64,000 nt of DNA. Source: Thermoanaerobaculales bacterium (GTDB lineage Bacteria; Acidobacteriota; Thermoanaerobaculia; Thermoanaerobaculales; Sulfomarinibacteraceae). Position 1 is the stretch's first letter. Every line of letters starts with the position of its first letter. This document shows, piece after piece, positions 57,688 to 64,000 of the stretch. The position numbers were made by a program, and so were the translations under genes. The notes beneath the pieces were generated by a model. It was not told the origin of the DNA. It did no database searches and saw only the letters and a program-made list of their open reading frames with translations. The stretch covers positions 22,100 to 86,099 of the forward strand of contig DAOPQC010000001.1 of NCBI GenBank assembly GCA_035358815.1. The letters run 5' to 3'.

Positions 57688-57731
57688 CCTCCGTTCCCGT
57701 TCCCGTTCCCGTTCCCGTTCCCGAACTCCCC
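57688..57731. repeat. (GTTCCC)5 array in the purL/purM divergent promoter region
   Basis: 'CCCTCCGTTCCCGTTCCCGTTCCCGTTCCCGTTCCCGAACTCCCC'. Confidence 0.85.
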
Positions 57732-59028: not shown

Positions 59029-59077
59029 GTGGTCGGCGTTCTGCCGGAACATCAACCACCGTGCCTGGCACCATTAC
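59029..59077 (+). repeat. Left copy of the direct repeat flanking the hicA/hicB-HEPN cassette
   Basis: GTGGTCGGCG..CCGGAACATCAACCACC-GTGCCTGGCACCA. The core CCGGAACATCAACCACC at 59044-59060 recurs at 60544-60560. Confidence 0.75.
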
Positions 59078-59138
59078 TGGCACCATTACAGAAGAAAACG
59101 AAAGACTTGGTGGTCATGGTCTTGACATTCGGACAAAA

Positions 59139-59378
59139 ATGTCCGAGATTGTTGATGTGACCGGGGCGGAGTTCATCAAGAAGGTCAAGAAGCTGGGGCG
59201 GCGACGTGGAGTGTCGGTCGAGTTCATCGTCGAGCGAGGGAAAGGCAGCCACGGAACCCTCTACTTCGGCGGCCGTTTCACGGTCGTCAAGCACAGAGCT
59301 GCCGAGCTGACGCCGGGACTGCTCCACGCGATGCTGAAGCAGCTCGGCCTGGCGCTCGATGACCTCCGCGGTGAGTAG
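59139..59378 (+). CDS. hicA: HicA-family mRNA interferase toxin
   Basis: The ATG at 59139 lies inside ORF 59061..59378. 'GKGSHGTLYFGGRFTVVKHRAAELTPGLLHAMLKQLGL' is typical of HicA (YcfA-like). Confidence 0.8.
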   Translation: MSEIVDVTGAEFIKKVKKLGRRRGVSVEFIVERGKGSHGTLYFGGRFTVVKHRAAELTPGLLHAMLKQLGLALDDLRGE

Positions 59379-59387
59379 GAGCGAGAC

Positions 59388-60449
59388 ATGACGCACGAGT
59401 TTGCATACCCGGTGGTTCTGGCGACGGACGCGTCCGGAGGTTACGTCGTGAGCTGCCCGGACCTGCCCGAGCTGCTCACCCAGGGTGAGGACCGCGCAGA
59501 CGCCGTCGCCAGCGCCATCGACGCTCTCGAGGAGGCAATCGCGGGTCGAGTCCGCCGGGGCGACGACATCCCGGATCCGTCGGAGCCTCCCGAGGACCTG
59601 GATGTCGAGCTCATCCGGTTGCCGCCGATCATGGCAGCCAAGGCCGCGCTCGCGATCGCGCTCCGGGAGAGCGGGCTGAGCCAATCTGCGTTCGCCCGCG
59701 AGACCGGAGTTGACGAGAAGGAGGTCCGTCGGCTCCTCGACCCTCGGCACCCGTCGAAGCTCCCGCGGCTCCAGAAAGCTCTCCTGTCCGTCGGCAGGGA
59801 GGTGGAGATACGGGTCGTGCCCGTGGCGCGCCCGTCATCTCCCCGTGAATTCGACCAAGTGCCAAGCCAACCTTGTCGAGTCCGGGAAGCCAAACAGCCC
59901 GGATACTCGACCATGGCACGATCAACCGACAGGCGCGCTGATGAGAAGCTGCGATTCGCGAAGGTGCACCTCCGCGAACTCATCGACCACGCCCAGGTTG
60001 GAGGCCACGACAAATGGGAGACCGCTCATCAGGAGAGCTGCTTCTATCACCTCGCCGGGGCGGTGGAGGCTGTCCTGCACGAGATCAACGCCGGCTATGG
60101 GTTGAACCTCGGGCTCAAGGACATCGACTGGAACACTGTTCGCGCCAAGCTCACCACGTCGAACCAGTCGTCGCCAGCGTTCGATCTCCTTTTGGCCACG
60201 AAGACGGACAAGTCGAGCTGGCTTTGGCAGCTGTTCGAGTGGCGCAATCACGGAGCTCATCGTGGGCGAGTCGGGGAAATGATCCACCTGTCGACCAGCA
60301 GGGTGGTGGACAACGAGTTCAAGGACCCCAGGACCGGCGAGGTGCAGTCGGTATACCCAGAGCTGGGCTGCCTGGACGTGCTCAGGAGATTGACTGTGGA
60401 CGTCGAGCACCTGATCGATCGCTGCCGCATCATCGACCCCAGTCTCTGA
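59388..60449 (+). CDS. hicB: HicB-family antitoxin (HicB fold + HTH) fused in frame to a ~190-aa C-terminal HEPN-like domain
   Basis: N-terminus 'YPVVLATDASGGYVVSCPDLPELLTQGEDRADAVASAIDALEEAI' is HicB-like. 'SQSAFARETGVDEKEVRRLL' is the HTH. A Pro/Ser linker follows. The helical C-terminal domain carries 'EWRNHGAHRG', which fits the HEPN R-N-x3-H motif. There is no stop between the parts. Confidence 0.7.
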   Translation: MTHEFAYPVVLATDASGGYVVSCPDLPELLTQGEDRADAVASAIDALEEAIAGRVRRGDDIPDPSEPPEDLDVELIRLPPIMAAKAALAIALRESGLSQSAFARETGVDEKEVRRLLDPRHPSKLPRLQKALLSVGREVEIRVVPVARPSSPREFDQVPSQPCRVREAKQPGYSTMARSTDRRADEKLRFAKVHLRELIDHAQVGGHDKWETAHQESCFYHLAGAVEAVLHEINAGYGLNLGLKDIDWNTVRAKLTTSNQSSPAFDLLLATKTDKSSWLWQLFEWRNHGAHRGRVGEMIHLSTSRVVDNEFKDPRTGEVQSVYPELGCLDVLRRLTVDVEHLIDRCRIIDPSL

Positions 60450-60654: not shown

Positions 60655-61179
60655 CTACTTGCGAAGGCTGCTGGCTTTTTCGGCTCTTGCCGCCTTGATC
60701 TTGAAACGGTTGACGATGGCGTCTGTGATGAACGCCCTGTTGGTCCGCTGGATCGCCATCGCTACCTCGATCGCGTCGCGGCTGGACAGCACGGAGCTCG
60801 CCACCAGCCGCAGCATGATTTCGAGTCCCCACTGCACGCTGACGTCGGATGCTCTGCACGCTGCACGCAGCGCTCGGTCGTTTGTCACGCAGCACCAACC
60901 GTTGTCCCTGGCCATGACCAGGCACACGACGTCGTCGAACGCGAGCCCCGGCCTCCTCACCGCCGCTTCCAGGAGCTGGCTGAGCGAGGGCACAGCAATC
61001 GATAAGCCGAGCTCCTCGCAGACCGTGACGTCAAGCTGATCGACTTTGGCGAGGACTTCCGTGGCGACGAACAGGGGCCCCGCTTCTCTCGCCACAAGCG
61101 CGAGCACCGAAGGCTCTGTATCCAGATAGTCGATCAGCACATTCGCGTCTACGATCAGCGGACGGTAGTCGCTGATCAA
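60655..61179 (-). CDS. PIN-domain nuclease (DUF4411-like)
   Basis: The TTG start comes immediately after the stop of the upstream Xre-ImmA gene. 'LIVDANVLIDYL' is the first PIN acidic motif. Later 'CVTNDRALR' resembles the PIN C-terminal D motif. Confidence 0.7.
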   Translation of the reverse strand: MISDYRPLIVDANVLIDYLDTEPSVLALVAREAGPLFVATEVLAKVDQLDVTVCEELGLSIAVPSLSQLLEAAVRRPGLAFDDVVCLVMARDNGWCCVTNDRALRAACRASDVSVQWGLEIMLRLVASSVLSSRDAIEVAMAIQRTNRAFITDAIVNRFKIKAARAEKASSLRK

Positions 61180-62322
61180 CTACAAGCTTCCGACCCAGGT
61201 GTTTGCGACCGCACGCATTTCCCTCAACGGGACGCCGAGAACTTCTGCTCCTCGCGACATGGTGATGTGTCCGCCCTCGATTCCCCGCCGAACGAGCAGA
61301 GCCAGGCGATCTTCGCGGAAGTCATGAGGCGACAGCTCGTGCGGCTCATGCCCGCGGGAGTATTCCGGGAAGCTCGCCTGATATGCGTCGGCAGCGAGAG
61401 CTTCGGGTTCATCCTCCCGCAGAAGGGTTCGACCGTACCTCCGCTCGTACTCCTGCTGGAAGAGCCTCCAGATGTTGACTGACGCGCCGGCCGACTGCGA
61501 AAGCCGATAGAGAACAGTCTTGTAGCTCACGCGGAAGATCCGCTTGACCTTCAGCACGCGGTCGACCAGCGCCATCCCCGCGGTCTCGGCCCACTCCTGT
61601 TGGAATACCGCTTCTGGCATGAGGAAATAGGACGCGAACGCGTTCGCCTCCTGCTCGCGGCTTCTCTCCTCTCTGATTTGCACCACGTCATAGTCGCCGG
61701 GGTGGAGCGCGAGATGGCCCAGCTCGTGGGCCGCAGTGAAGATCCAACGCTCGACCGAGATGCGCTCCCAGGTGTTGACTGCCAGGGCCGGCCCCCCATC
61801 CCCCGGACCCACGGACAGCCCGAAGAAGTCGCTCGATGCCCTTTTCGTCGACAGGACCTTCAGCCCCTTTGACTCGAGTCGGCCACAGATGTCACGAATA
61901 GGCTCTCGTTCATCGATCCCAAGGATCGACCTCACGCGTGCGGCCGCCGCTTTTGCACCTTCGGACCGCTTCGATCCGAGATCCGGACACTCGACGCGGT
62001 CATTCAGCAGCCCCTCGAGCTCATTGAACGCCTCGAGCCACCCCGCAACGTCGGCGAGGATCGCGTCTCTGGTGTTGAGGCGCTTGAGCGATCGGAACCT
62101 CACCTGTCGGAGTTGACGCACCGGCACGATCAGGTCCTGCAGTGGAATGGAGAGTGATTCCGCCAGAGCGTGGAGGGTGTCGACACGCGGAAGCGACTTG
62201 CCAGCCTCGAGGTTGCGATAACCCACCCGAGACAGGCCCGCGGCTTCCGCCACCGCGGCCTGAGTCAGCCCTTTGGCCACCCGAACCCGCCGCAGGTTTG
62301 CAGCAAGTGCGTTTGCTTCCAT
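61180..62322 (-). CDS. Xre-family HTH fused to an ImmA/IrrE (COG2856, DUF955) zinc metallopeptidase
   Basis: I prefer the ATG at 62322 because it follows 'GAGGGGGGAG'. HTH 'GLTQAAVAEAAGLSRVGYRNLEAG'. HEXXH motif 'AAHELGHLALH'. Confidence 0.8.
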   Translation of the reverse strand: MEANALAANLRRVRVAKGLTQAAVAEAAGLSRVGYRNLEAGKSLPRVDTLHALAESLSIPLQDLIVPVRQLRQVRFRSLKRLNTRDAILADVAGWLEAFNELEGLLNDRVECPDLGSKRSEGAKAAAARVRSILGIDEREPIRDICGRLESKGLKVLSTKRASSDFFGLSVGPGDGGPALAVNTWERISVERWIFTAAHELGHLALHPGDYDVVQIREERSREQEANAFASYFLMPEAVFQQEWAETAGMALVDRVLKVKRIFRVSYKTVLYRLSQSAGASVNIWRLFQQEYERRYGRTLLREDEPEALAADAYQASFPEYSRGHEPHELSPHDFREDRLALLVRRGIEGGHITMSRGAEVLGVPLREMRAVANTWVGSL

Positions 62323-62342
62323 GGCTCCCCCCCTCGATGAAG

Positions 62343-62371
62343 AAGATAAGTCTTGTGACAATTTCTGTCAA
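62343..62371 (-). promoter_or_regulatory. Candidate sigma-70 promoter of the Xre-ImmA/PIN operon, overlapped by a TGACA-N5-TGTCA operator-like palindrome
   Basis: The minus strand reads TTGACA (62371-62366), a 17-nt spacer, TATCTT (62348-62343), 20 nt including the SD, then ATG 62322. The palindrome TGACA(62356-60)/TGTCA(62366-70) overlaps the -35 element and spacer. Confidence 0.4.
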
Positions 62372-62557
62372 GCTGATAACTTTAGAATCGTGGCCGCCAT
62401 CGCCGAACGAACACCCTTCGATCGCCGAGCGACTTTGAATGTGGTCAGCGTGCCTCTCGTTGGGGATCCGGTGGTTTCCTCGACAAACTCCGCTCAGCCC
62501 GCGCGTCGTCAATGGCTTAGAGCGTGGCCCTGAAGCCCCGTGGCGGGAGGCGCTAAG

Positions 62558-64000
62558 ATGGTCAATGCAATGGCCGAGCAGAAGACACCTGAGCAAGAAG
62601 CGCGGGAACTCATCGACGCCCAGCTTGCCGAGTCGGGTTGGGTCGTCCAGAGCCGTGACGGAATCAACCTCTCGGCCGGGCAGGGCGTCGCGATCCGCGA
62701 GTTCCCGCTCAAGTCCGGGCACGGCTTCGCGGACTACCTGCTCTTCATCGACGGCCAGGCGGTCGGCGTCCTCGAGGCCAAGAAGGTCGGCTTCCCCCTG
62801 ACCGGCGTCGAGGTGCAGGCGCAAAGGTACTCCGAGGGTCTGCCCGATCACCTTGACGCTCCGTACCGGCCGCTTCCATTCTGCTACCTCAGCACGGGCG
62901 CGGTGACCATGTTCTCGAACGGCTTCGACCCACATCCTCGAAGCCGCCGCATCTTCCAGTTCCACCGGCCGACGACCCTGGCGGAGTGGCTCCGGATGGA
63001 TACCCTCGACGCCTGGGTCCGCAGCACCCTGCCCGACGGAGGGTTCTTCACCGGCGCGGACGACACAAAGCCCTCATCTCTCCGGTCCCGCCTCCAGACC
63101 CTCCCGCCGCTCCAGCCGTCCTTCCTCTACCCGAACCAGATCAAGGCCGTCACCAACCTCGATCAGTCGCTCAAGGAGGATCGCCCCCGCGCCCTCATCC
63201 AGATGGCGACCGGCTCGGGCAAGACCATCATGGCGGTCACGGCGATCTACCGCCTCATCAAGTTCGGCGGCGCACGGCGGGTCCTCTTCCTGGTGGATCG
63301 AGGCAACCTCGGCGAGCAGGCCGAGAAGGAGTTCGCCAACTTCCGCTCCCCGGATGACAACCGAAAGTTCACCGAGCTCTATAACGTCCAGCGCCTCGCC
63401 TCAAACAACATCGGCGCCTCGTCCAAGGTGGTGATCTCCACCATCCAGCGCCTCTACTCCATGCTCAAGGGCGAGGAGGAGCTCGACCCGACGGCCGAGG
63501 AGACCTCGCTCTTCGAGCTCGAGGCCGCCGTTCCGAAAGAGCCGCTGCCGGTCGTCTACAACCCGGCCATCCCGCCCGAGCACTTCGATGTCATCGTCGT
63601 CGACGAGTGCCACCGCTCCATCTACTCGCTCTGGCGGCAGGTGCTGGAGTACTTCGACGCCTACCTGATTGGACTGACGGCCACACCCGCCAAGCACACC
63701 TTTGGCTTCTTCAACCAAAACCTGGTGATGGAGTACGGCCACGAGGAGGCGGTCGCCGACGGCGTGAACGTGGACTTCGAGCTCTACCGCATCCGCACCA
63801 GGATCACGGCCGACGGCTCCACCATCGAGGCCGAGGACGGCACGATGGTCGGCATCCGCGACCGCCAGACCCGCCAGACGCGCTGGGAGCAGCCGGACGA
63901 GGACGTGATCTACGACGCGGACGAGCTCGACCGCCGCGTCGTCGCCAAGGACCAGATCCGGCTCATTGTCCAGACCTTCAAGCAGCGGCTCCCAATTGAC
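62558..64000 (+). CDS. hsdR: Type I restriction enzyme R subunit (HsdR, COG4096-like), 5' part; it runs off the window end
   Basis: This ORF is not in the supplied track because it has no stop in the window. My hand translation from the ATG at 62558 is open to 64000. PD-(D/E)xK motif 'ADYLLFIDGQAVGVLEAKK', Walker A 'QMATGSGKT', 'VVVDECHRS' and 'GLTATP'. Confidence 0.85.
   Translation, partial: MVNAMAEQKTPEQEARELIDAQLAESGWVVQSRDGINLSAGQGVAIREFPLKSGHGFADYLLFIDGQAVGVLEAKKVGFPLTGVEVQAQRYSEGLPDHLDAPYRPLPFCYLSTGAVTMFSNGFDPHPRSRRIFQFHRPTTLAEWLRMDTLDAWVRSTLPDGGFFTGADDTKPSSLRSRLQTLPPLQPSFLYPNQIKAVTNLDQSLKEDRPRALIQMATGSGKTIMAVTAIYRLIKFGGARRVLFLVDRGNLGEQAEKEFANFRSPDDNRKFTELYNVQRLASNNIGASSKVVISTIQRLYSMLKGEEELDPTAEETSLFELEAAVPKEPLPVVYNPAIPPEHFDVIVVDECHRSIYSLWRQVLEYFDAYLIGLTATPAKHTFGFFNQNLVMEYGHEEAVADGVNVDFELYRIRTRITADGSTIEAEDGTMVGIRDRQTRQTRWEQPDEDVIYDADELDRRVVAKDQIRLIVQTFKQRLPID

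Follow-up and report, generated by a model that had tools for sequence, protein, structure and literature searches.

Does a gene for a DNA-binding metallopeptidase that ends exactly where a putative nuclease gene begins mark a toxin–antitoxin (TA) system, and would the peptidase then gate the toxin? This question is raised by two minus-strand genes in a 64,000-nucleotide (nt) stretch of the Thermoanaerobaculales bacterium assembly GCA_035358815.1 (contig DAOPQC010000001.1, positions 22,100–86,099; hereafter "the window", in whose coordinates all positions are given). The upstream gene (61180–62322) encodes a 380-amino-acid (aa) protein carrying an Xre-type helix-turn-helix (HTH) and an M78 peptidase domain, and the downstream gene (60655–61179) encodes a 174-aa protein with a predicted PIN fold. 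A first-pass annotation, made from the letters of the window, had proposed a candidate protease-gated toxin system with an autoregulatory operator. Here, we find that the two genes are inherited together across distant lineages and kept under purifying selection, and that their promoter region is conserved as well. The explanation that we consider probable is a horizontally mobile, self-contained two-gene TA or abortive-infection module composed of an HTH–M78 protease antitoxin and a PIN toxin, RosmerTA-like, equivalent in architecture to VapBC52, and triggered by self-cleavage.

Such an architecture, in which a COG2856-Xre protein is paired with a PIN protein, has already been predicted and experimentally characterized and is not a new kind of system. 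Sixty COG2856–PIN pairs were recorded in 2009, when Rv2515c was cited and a protease-controlled three-component TA was proposed (Makarova 2009, PMC2701414), and the first-pass annotation had credited such an analysis with predicting COG2856-Xre proteins as antitoxin or regulator components. Later, the COG2405, DUF4411, and PIN_14/20/26 families were found co-transcribed with HTH–DUF955 fusions, with self-cleavage of the HTH proposed as the trigger, and active-site conservation was described as variable among COG2405-like PIN families (Matelska 2017, PMC5499597). NetFlax linked an ImmA node to PIN-like toxins and included RmrTA of phage Kita (PMC10440598). Experimentally, Rv2514c was shown to be toxic and to be rescued by Rv2515c, establishing a TA pair (2019, PMC6504116), and in June 2026 the same two proteins were characterized as VapBC52 of Mycobacterium tuberculosis (PMC13273310). 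The earlier statement that PIN-linked versions remain uncharacterized is thus outdated. In the VapBC52 study, crystal structures display one antitoxin bound to a toxin dimer (1:2) through the N-terminal HTH domain and the C-terminal domain, the latter occluding the VapC52 active site, while single-stranded DNA (ssDNA) activates the VapB52 peptidase through a cysteine-switch loop and leads to self-cleavage, for which a conserved "FR motif" (F75-R76) is proposed as the probable site. The substrates of VapC52 are tRNAs, and overexpressing the toxin makes cells resistant to phage. The study did not extend to promoter and autoregulation, nor apparently to natural variation at the switch residue (PMC13273310).

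Organization and conservation of the gene pair

The list of open reading frames (ORFs) and the raw sequence give a minus-strand ORF at 61180–62361, within which the ATG at 62322 yields the 380-aa product. All homologues start at the methionine corresponding to this ATG, and the alternative TTG at 62361 falls within the promoter. As first reported from the raw sequence, the TAG stop of the antitoxin gene (61180–61182) directly abuts the TTG start of the PIN gene (61177–61179), forming a junction at 61177–61182 on the minus strand that is also found in the relatives L084 and L086 and points to translational coupling of both genes. The same pair of genes is annotated in the public assemblies of this Thermoanaerobaculales metagenome-assembled genome. 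The antitoxin and PIN ORFs of the window also share a reading frame, and stop-codon read-through or a split fusion was considered and rejected: among 80 relatives, only some third of the loci have both genes in one frame and none has them fused, which makes the shared frame a coincidence.

A scan seeded with the PIN protein and restricted to one genome per species returned 163 relatives, of which 80 loci were kept, and every one of the 80 has an Xre-M78 gene directly preceding the PIN gene in the same orientation. These loci represent at least 15 phyla, including lineages of Acidobacteriota, Chloroflexota, Myxococcota, Planctomycetota, Beta- and Gammaproteobacteria, Spirochaetota, and Bacteroidota, as well as Bacillota, Verrucomicrobiota, Gemmatimonadota, Nitrospirota, the candidate phyla radiation, and others. 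Most junctions consist of a gap or overlap of 4 to ~15 nt, a few are longer, and ATGA or GTGA overlaps, which are typical of translational coupling, are common. Conversely, in a metagenome scan seeded with the antitoxin, a PIN gene was found downstream in 69 of the 77 loci with enough room. No alternative toxin was seen in the other eight, which look like orphan antitoxins left behind after toxin loss. The co-occurrence check proposed at the outset therefore favors a true pair from both sides. In one close relative, L087 (antitoxin 87% identical to that of the window), the PIN gene is cut to ~12 N-terminal codons joined to its C-terminal end by an internal deletion (L087:2253–2330).

The two proteins also diverge together. 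All-pairs identities of antitoxin and PIN protein are correlated at r = 0.815, a value reached in none of 2000 Mantel permutations; the simpler correlation of identities to the window proteins was set aside as uninformative (r = 0.20). Ratios of non-synonymous to synonymous substitution rates (dN/dS) of 0.10–0.20 for both genes indicate purifying selection. The surroundings of the pair are, by contrast, heterogeneous: among 103 flanking ORFs of related loci, no family occurs more than twice, and no restriction–modification (R-M) family, third gene, or defence-island signature recurs. Flanking genes include CBASS cyclases, PglX (BREX), DrmD (DISARM), Argonaute, integrases, resolvases, and phage genes. 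This heterogeneity indicates that the pair is an autonomous, mobile two-gene unit.

Domains and motifs of the antitoxin

Pfam places HTH_3 at residues 10–64 (E = 7e-13) and Peptidase_M78 (PF06114) at residues 188–275 (E = 2e-18) of the 380-aa protein, in agreement with its original description as an Xre HTH joined to a COG2856/DUF955 peptidase with a HELGH motif. Considered together with the AlphaFold (AF2) model (pLDDT 80), the profile evidence predicts an Xre-HTH, an M78 peptidase of the ImmA/IrrE/CapP type, a second HTH, and a C-terminal region, i.e., an RmrA-like and VapB52-like makeup. In PADLOC, 14 RmrA profile models match the protein, the best at 4.4e-36 over residues 10–295, and the NCBIfam spr1629 (RipB) antitoxin model gives a partial match (4e-19) far under its cut-off.

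The N-terminal Xre HTH spans residues 5–68 (62119–62310, minus strand) and carries the recognition helix SRVGYRNLE, in which Y35, R36, and E39 are invariant in the homologue alignment, and the pattern SRxxYRN(I/L)E is almost invariant across the family. Among the best matches of this domain in a profile search of the PDB were DdrO (7e-8) and the N-terminal domain of CapH (3e-7), which are the substrates cleaved by IrrE and CapP, respectively. Foldseek also returned DdrO and CapH, along with the R-M controller proteins C.AhdI, C.BclI, and C.Esp1396I. Directly after the HTH lies the linker motif VRFRS (V74–S78; 62089–62103, minus strand), modelled as a beta-strand, in which F76-R77 is a candidate self-cleavage site. 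Across 33 homologues, V74, R75, and R77 never vary, and F76 is conserved in at least 90%.

The M78 peptidase domain covers approximately residues 118–278 (61489–61971, minus strand), with the HELGH zinc motif at residues 199–203 (61714–61728, minus strand; H199, E200, and H203). In the same 33 homologues, H199, E200, H203, and H207 are invariant, and E225 within the motif EANxFA is invariant or nearly so. For the peptidase and internal HTH together, the top Foldseek matches were CapP (7t5t) and IrrE (3dti), in alignments that span only 165–180 columns. A profile of residues 70–380 matched CapP at 1e-6 and PDB chain 9vzy_A at E = 2.4e-3 over 150 residues. The latter chain is 393 aa long and contains HEFVH, then LH, a cysteine nine residues past the second histidine, and then E..N..A..LMP; its motifs and length identify it as VapB52-delta-23 of M. 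tuberculosis.

The C-terminal region (residues 300–380; 61183–61425, minus strand) combines high conservation with predicted disorder. Residues 302–337 are modelled at pLDDT 29–50 and followed by three short helices, and E305, P306, P319, E320, E326, P327, L330, D334, and F335 in this segment are invariant. Conserved yet disordered segments of this kind are typical of antitoxin parts that fold on their toxin, and the region is a candidate toxin-neutralizing part by analogy with the C-terminal domain of VapB52, which occludes the VapC52 active site.

A protease fused to an HTH need not cut itself. The pair could be a TA system whose peptidase works on another protein, with neutralization achieved enzymatically by breakdown of the PIN toxin, or with a distinct Xre repressor encoded elsewhere in the genome as the substrate; the toxin would then be released when host proteases such as ClpXP degrade the antitoxin. 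ImmA, IrrE, and CapP do cleave separate repressor proteins (PMC5499597, PMC10440598), and neutralization by the Rosmer-type system RipAB (Spr1630-1629) depends on ClpX (PMC12795458); in addition, the residue that acts as the cysteine switch of VapB52 is absent from the window protein. However, the VRFRS motif is positioned exactly as the FR motif of VapB52, the N-terminal HTH resembles proteins that are themselves cleaved (DdrO and CapH), and no conserved third gene that could supply a separate repressor lies beside the pair. We therefore regard action in trans as unlikely.

A PIN-fold protein as the putative toxin

Alone, the 174-aa protein scores only E = 0.0016 against the Pfam PIN model, which is under the cut-off. 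This weak single-sequence score is offset by the agreement of the family alignment, the AlphaFold model (AF2; pLDDT 95.2), and Foldseek, all of which point to a PIN fold, consistent with how the gene was first described. The search found 117 homologues, 28 of which were used for the alignment; within these, Pfam PIN (PF01850) is matched by 11 members (best 7e-9) and PIN_9 by nine. Some family members carry precomputed PF11848/DUF3368 annotations (COG2405 group), and most have no Pfam domain on record. A suspected DUF4411 identity was rejected, as none of the 28 members match PF14367 and the matches obtained are to PF01850, PIN_9, or PF11848. Structurally, the model comprises a PIN core (approximately residues 8–117) followed by a three-helix C-terminal extension, and its best PDB matches are all PIN/VapC proteins (Rv0301, SSO1118, PAE2754, Shigella VapC, and FitB; probability 1.0, TM ~0.6 on the target), with 3h87, 2mdt, 1y82, 4chg, and 3tnd among the matching entries. 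No PADLOC model matched the window PIN protein, and one of the 28 family members gave a marginal PDC-S70 match.

The acidic residues on which the toxin assignment was expected to stand or fall are largely in place: D11, D17, D83, and D101, along with N13, are invariant in all 28 aligned sequences, and the glutamate position 45 is a lysine in the window. This substitution, which recurs as lysine or arginine throughout the subclade of the window while most family members have (D/E)-E, is where a further explanation has to be weighed, namely that the pair is mainly a selfish addiction or stabilization element or a decaying module, with no role in defence or stress and a PIN domain attenuated by the glutamate-to-lysine change. 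The A44-K45 sequence would be expected under such decay, as would the ~10% of antitoxin-seeded loci without a toxin, the internal PIN deletion of L087, and the variable active sites of COG2405-like PIN families (PMC5499597). Against this, the PIN gene is still under purifying selection (dN/dS range 0.12–0.20), with 0.12 obtained in the comparison to its nearest relative (83% identical), which also has K45, and the four aspartates are invariant. The company kept by the pair also speaks for more than addiction: it lies between HicAB and a type I R-M system in the window, and beside CBASS, BREX, DISARM, Argonaute, and integrase genes in relatives. Selfish maintenance or decay thus appears distinctly unlikely.

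A conserved promoter and candidate operator

Upstream of the pair, a sigma-70-like promoter with the –35 hexamer TTGACA (62366–62371, minus strand), a 17-nt spacer, and the –10 hexamer TATCTT (62343–62348, minus strand) is the only such site between 60300 and 62700 (shuffle mean 0.1). The –10 hexamer is part of a conserved ACTTATCTT box (62343–62351), and a Shine-Dalgarno-like GGGGGGGAG (62326–62334, minus strand) ends 3 nt upstream of the ATG, with GGAGG-like runs at the matching place in relatives. The exact dyad TGACA-N5-TGTCA (62356–62370, minus strand) overlaps the –35 and spacer and is present once in the 64-kb window. Both the promoter and the overlapping palindrome are thus located where the first-pass annotation had described them. 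By itself, the palindrome is unremarkable, matches with at most one mismatch being expected 0.59 times, and its significance derives from the conservation of its core in relatives.

An ACA-N5-TGT core was found in 21 of 71 related upstream regions (shuffle mean 1.5, maximum 5), and other spacings of the same half-sites (N1–N4 and N6–N11) occurred zero to three times. These cores are positioned between –32 and –59 relative to the ATG, and 17 of the 21 fall within –43 to –52. The full 5+5 palindrome is limited to the window and one other locus, so that conservation supports the core of the proposed operator palindrome but not its complete form. Other lineages embed the core in longer palindromes, e.g., CCATATCTACA-N5-TGTAGATATGG. 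In the closest relatives of the window (antitoxin 87% identical), the right arm of the palindrome is lost and two TTATC-containing boxes are kept, one preceding the –35 (AGTTATCAT) and the other covering the –10 (CTTATC(T/A)T), as a direct repeat 30 bp apart. Likewise, the ACTTATCTT box repeats the upstream TTATC box in direct orientation at the same 30-bp distance, and the CTTATC extension is present in all close relatives.

A common layout is shared by 32 non-redundant relatives, in which TTGACA is followed by a 17-nt spacer and TA(y)(y)(w)T, approximately 48 nt upstream of the ATG. TTGACA itself was found in 29 of 67 related upstream regions, and the TA at positions +23/+24 in 28 and 31 of the 32 promoters, respectively. 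Conservation extends beyond the sigma-70 consensus to three elements. First, a box abutting the –35 on its upstream side (AAAGTTATCAGC; 62372–62383, minus strand; consensus AAAcT(a/t)(t/a)yCAT) is a candidate outer operator half-site, which is kept in the closest relatives L084–L088 and in which positions –10, –8, –4, –3, and –2 relative to TTGACA are A (25/32), T (24/32), C (25/32), A (25/32), and T (24/32). Second, the spacer carries G and T at +12 and +13 (24/32 and 22/32), which with the ACA of the –35 make up the core of the palindrome, the candidate inner operator. Third, G-G-y precedes the –10. No clear split emerged when recognition-helix variants were compared with operator classes for covariation across the family. 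Overall, the conserved promoter boxes and the near-invariant recognition helix support a predicted operator over the –35, spacer, and –10, and hence autorepression, with the exact half-sites remaining candidates.

Genomic surroundings

On the other side of this promoter, an hsdR-like gene starts at 62558 on the plus strand (ResIII 6e-39, HSDR_N, and NCBIfam type I endonuclease 3e-67), divergent from the pair and 235 nt from the Xre-M78 gene, which is the head-to-head arrangement originally noted. The type I R-M operon overruns the window end (62558–64000, plus strand, continuing in L081:1–8622), and on the longer contig consists of a 957-aa hsdR product (EcoEI_R_C), a 424-aa hsdS-like protein with a weak Methylase_S match, a 501-aa hsdM product, and a 406-aa protein. 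The resulting gene order in the window is purL, purM, HicA, HicB-like, PIN, Xre-M78, and hsdR-S-M.

This arrangement raises the possibility that the Xre-M78 protein controls the type I R-M operon or a mobile element, in the manner of a C-protein or of ImmR/ImmA, with the PIN protein as an accessory. The divergence from hsdR across only 235 nt would fit such a role, as would the superposition of the N-terminal HTH on C.AhdI, C.BclI, and C.Esp1396I and the presence of an HsdM fragment near the pair in L086. This idea is highly improbable, however, given that the neighbours of the 80 loci are heterogeneous with no recurring R-M gene, that the operator belongs to the promoter of the pair itself, with ~190 nt separating it from the start of hsdR, and that the PIN gene is the sole conserved partner.

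Several other features were observed around the pair. Two plus-strand genes (59061–60449) run toward the PIN gene: the first encodes a HicA-like toxin and the second an unusually long, 353-aa HicB-like protein, in which the N-terminal domain is that of HicB and DUF6586 is matched weakly; in L086, a HicBA pair and the HsdM fragment likewise adjoin the Xre-M78/PIN pair. The hsdR-proximal half of the intergenic region contains a 12-nt direct repeat, ATCGCCGA(A/G)CGA, in two copies 22 nt apart (62399–62432), and a perfect hexamer tandem repeat, (CCGTTC)x5.5, lies at 57691–57723 in the divergent purL–purM intergenic or 5' region. In L088 (1593–2795) and L089 (684–1886), a second, divergent Xre-M78 gene (400 aa) stands back-to-back with the operon, with the intergenic promoter region in common. 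Finally, in the closest relatives (L084:4676–4849, L085, L086, L087, L088, L089, L001:6506–6676, and L002:6515–6685), the PIN gene is directly followed by a conserved 57-aa basic ORF (MAKNPPAGDGHRHGAVRDRSQFFNP...FKGVRKEK) that has no Pfam match. The window lacks this ORF, which may encode a third component of the system or merely travel with the pair.

A proposed model of protease-gated toxin release

For the self-cleavage-triggered TA module favored here, VapBC52, CapP, and IrrE are the models from which we infer how the antitoxin binds, that it cleaves itself, what triggers it, which RNA is the target, and that the pair serves in defence. Under this model, a single sigma-70 promoter would drive both genes, whose translation would be coupled at TAG|TTG. 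The 380-aa protein would bind the PIN nuclease directly and so keep it inactive, using both the N-terminal HTH domain and the conserved C-terminal segment, the latter being disordered until toxin-bound, while the Xre HTH would bind the composite operator over the –35, spacer, and –10 and repress its own operon. A stress or phage signal, which is ssDNA for VapB52 and CapP, would activate the M78 peptidase, which would then cleave the antitoxin itself within the VRF76-R77S linker that joins HTH and protease. Cleavage would detach the HTH, freeing the PIN RNase (probably a tRNase) and de-repressing the promoter, with growth arrest or abortive infection as the expected outcome. The earlier proposal of an autoregulated, protease-gated PIN toxin is thus upheld as far as pair conservation, folds, a CapP/IrrE-like protease fused to a DdrO/CapH-like HTH, and the operator core are concerned, and fails with regard to conservation of the full palindrome.

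A number of observations weigh against this model. The similarity of the antitoxin to VapB52 is remote and limited to the peptidase part (E = 2.4e-3), and the window PIN protein and VapC52 are not detectably related beyond their fold; a profile of the PIN alignment retrieved no VapC52-like chain from the PDB at E ≤ 1. None of the 33 antitoxin homologues has a cysteine between H203 and E225, such that the cysteine switch of VapB52 and CapP is absent, and in the alignment to 9vzy_A the switch column holds Y211 or a gap. The activation signal may therefore differ, which makes ssDNA an uncertain trigger here. In the PIN proteins of both the window and its closest relative, Lys45 takes the place of the canonical second acidic residue and follows Ala44, which makes the catalytic strength of the toxin uncertain. 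The outer operator boxes are direct rather than inverted repeats in the clade of the window, an unusual arrangement for an Xre dimer. Finally, phages and plasmids are nearly devoid of the family: searches with the PIN protein gave no match in the phage collection and one in the plasmid collection, and a single IMG/VR contig matched the antitoxin.

Some of these features could also be taken as signs of a distinct mechanism. In a tentative and rather doubtful reading, the family would be a mechanistic variant of the VapBC52/CapP theme, with another signal or another form of zinc gating, an operator that couples cleavage to de-repression, and the 57-aa protein as a third component. The shorter loop with invariant His207 and conserved Tyr211 and Asp212 may make the protein responsive to some signal different from ssDNA or provide another way of gating the zinc site. 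The composite operator may have three parts, namely a TTATC-type box on the outside, the ACA-N5-TGT dyad spanning the –35, and a further box at the –10.

As a VapBC52-like module, the pair would extend the mechanism of a self-cleaving protease antitoxin that controls a PIN RNase, known from one mycobacterial example, to a family spread over at least 15 phyla, mainly in metagenome-assembled genomes of uncultured phyla and largely unannotated. To this theme, the family adds a conserved promoter and operator layout that predicts autoregulation, as well as natural variation at the proposed switch residue. Present defence-finder models would miss the system because its toxin has no model. The value of the analysis hence lies in annotation and in a few testable predictions, and current understanding is otherwise unchanged.

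Comparison with known systems

The window pair differs from canonical VapBC systems, whose VapB antitoxins are small (8–13 kDa) and of the RHH, AbrB, or Phd type, in having a 380-aa antitoxin that combines an HTH with an M78 peptidase. R-M controller proteins, which are characterized by conserved linkage to an R-M operon and a C-box operator at the R-M promoter, share the fold of its HTH, but no R-M family recurs among the 103 neighbours and the candidate operator is located at the promoter of the pair itself. RosmerTA, a defence system against phages with a Zn-peptidase antitoxin (Millman 2022, PMC10440598), is closer, being likewise a two-gene TA with a Zn-peptidase antitoxin that matches RmrA models. 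Here, however, the antitoxin gene comes first and the toxin matches no PADLOC RmrT model, while characterized RmrT toxins are membrane-depolarizing or DnaN-targeting proteins rather than PIN nucleases.

CapH/CapP and DdrO/IrrE provide the best PDB match, in both structure and sequence, to the peptidase and internal HTH (7t5t and 3dti). In both, an M78 protease activated by DNA damage or ssDNA inactivates an Xre repressor, a logic that would also apply to the window system. Protease and HTH substrate are separate proteins in those systems, as they are in ImmR/ImmA, and are fused in one ORF in the window; IrrE and CapP carry a C-terminal GAF-like domain, in place of which the window protein has its disordered segment and three short helices; and the predicted output would be to free a toxin encoded in the same operon, whereas CBASS or repair genes are de-repressed in those systems. 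The 2009 and 2017 predictions (PMC2701414, PMC5499597) are matched exactly, with a fused HTH–DUF955 gene upstream of a PIN-like gene, although those cases are gene-neighbourhood predictions and the window PIN family is mostly unannotated.

In the comparison with VapBC52, the two antitoxins differ in length (380 aa against 415 aa in VapB52), and the zinc-capping Cys229 switch of VapB52, also present in CapP, has no counterpart in the shorter loop of the window protein, which contains Y211-D212 instead. The toxins belong to different subfamilies, with a 174-aa PF01850/PIN_9/DUF3368-like protein bearing a three-helix tail in the window and the 153-aa DUF4411 protein VapC52 in M. tuberculosis. Beyond these differences, the systems agree in gene order, with a large antitoxin first and a PIN toxin second, and their antitoxins share an Xre HTH, FR linker, HEXXH M78 peptidase, internal HTH, and small helical C-terminal domain in the same order. 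The linker match (F76-R77 against F75-R76) is one of motif and position only, a search with the linker alone having given no match. Within the peptidase, the HExxHxxLH and E..N..A..LMP motifs align, and both antitoxins have the same structural neighbours, i.e., CapP (7T5T), IrrE (3DTI), and C-proteins.

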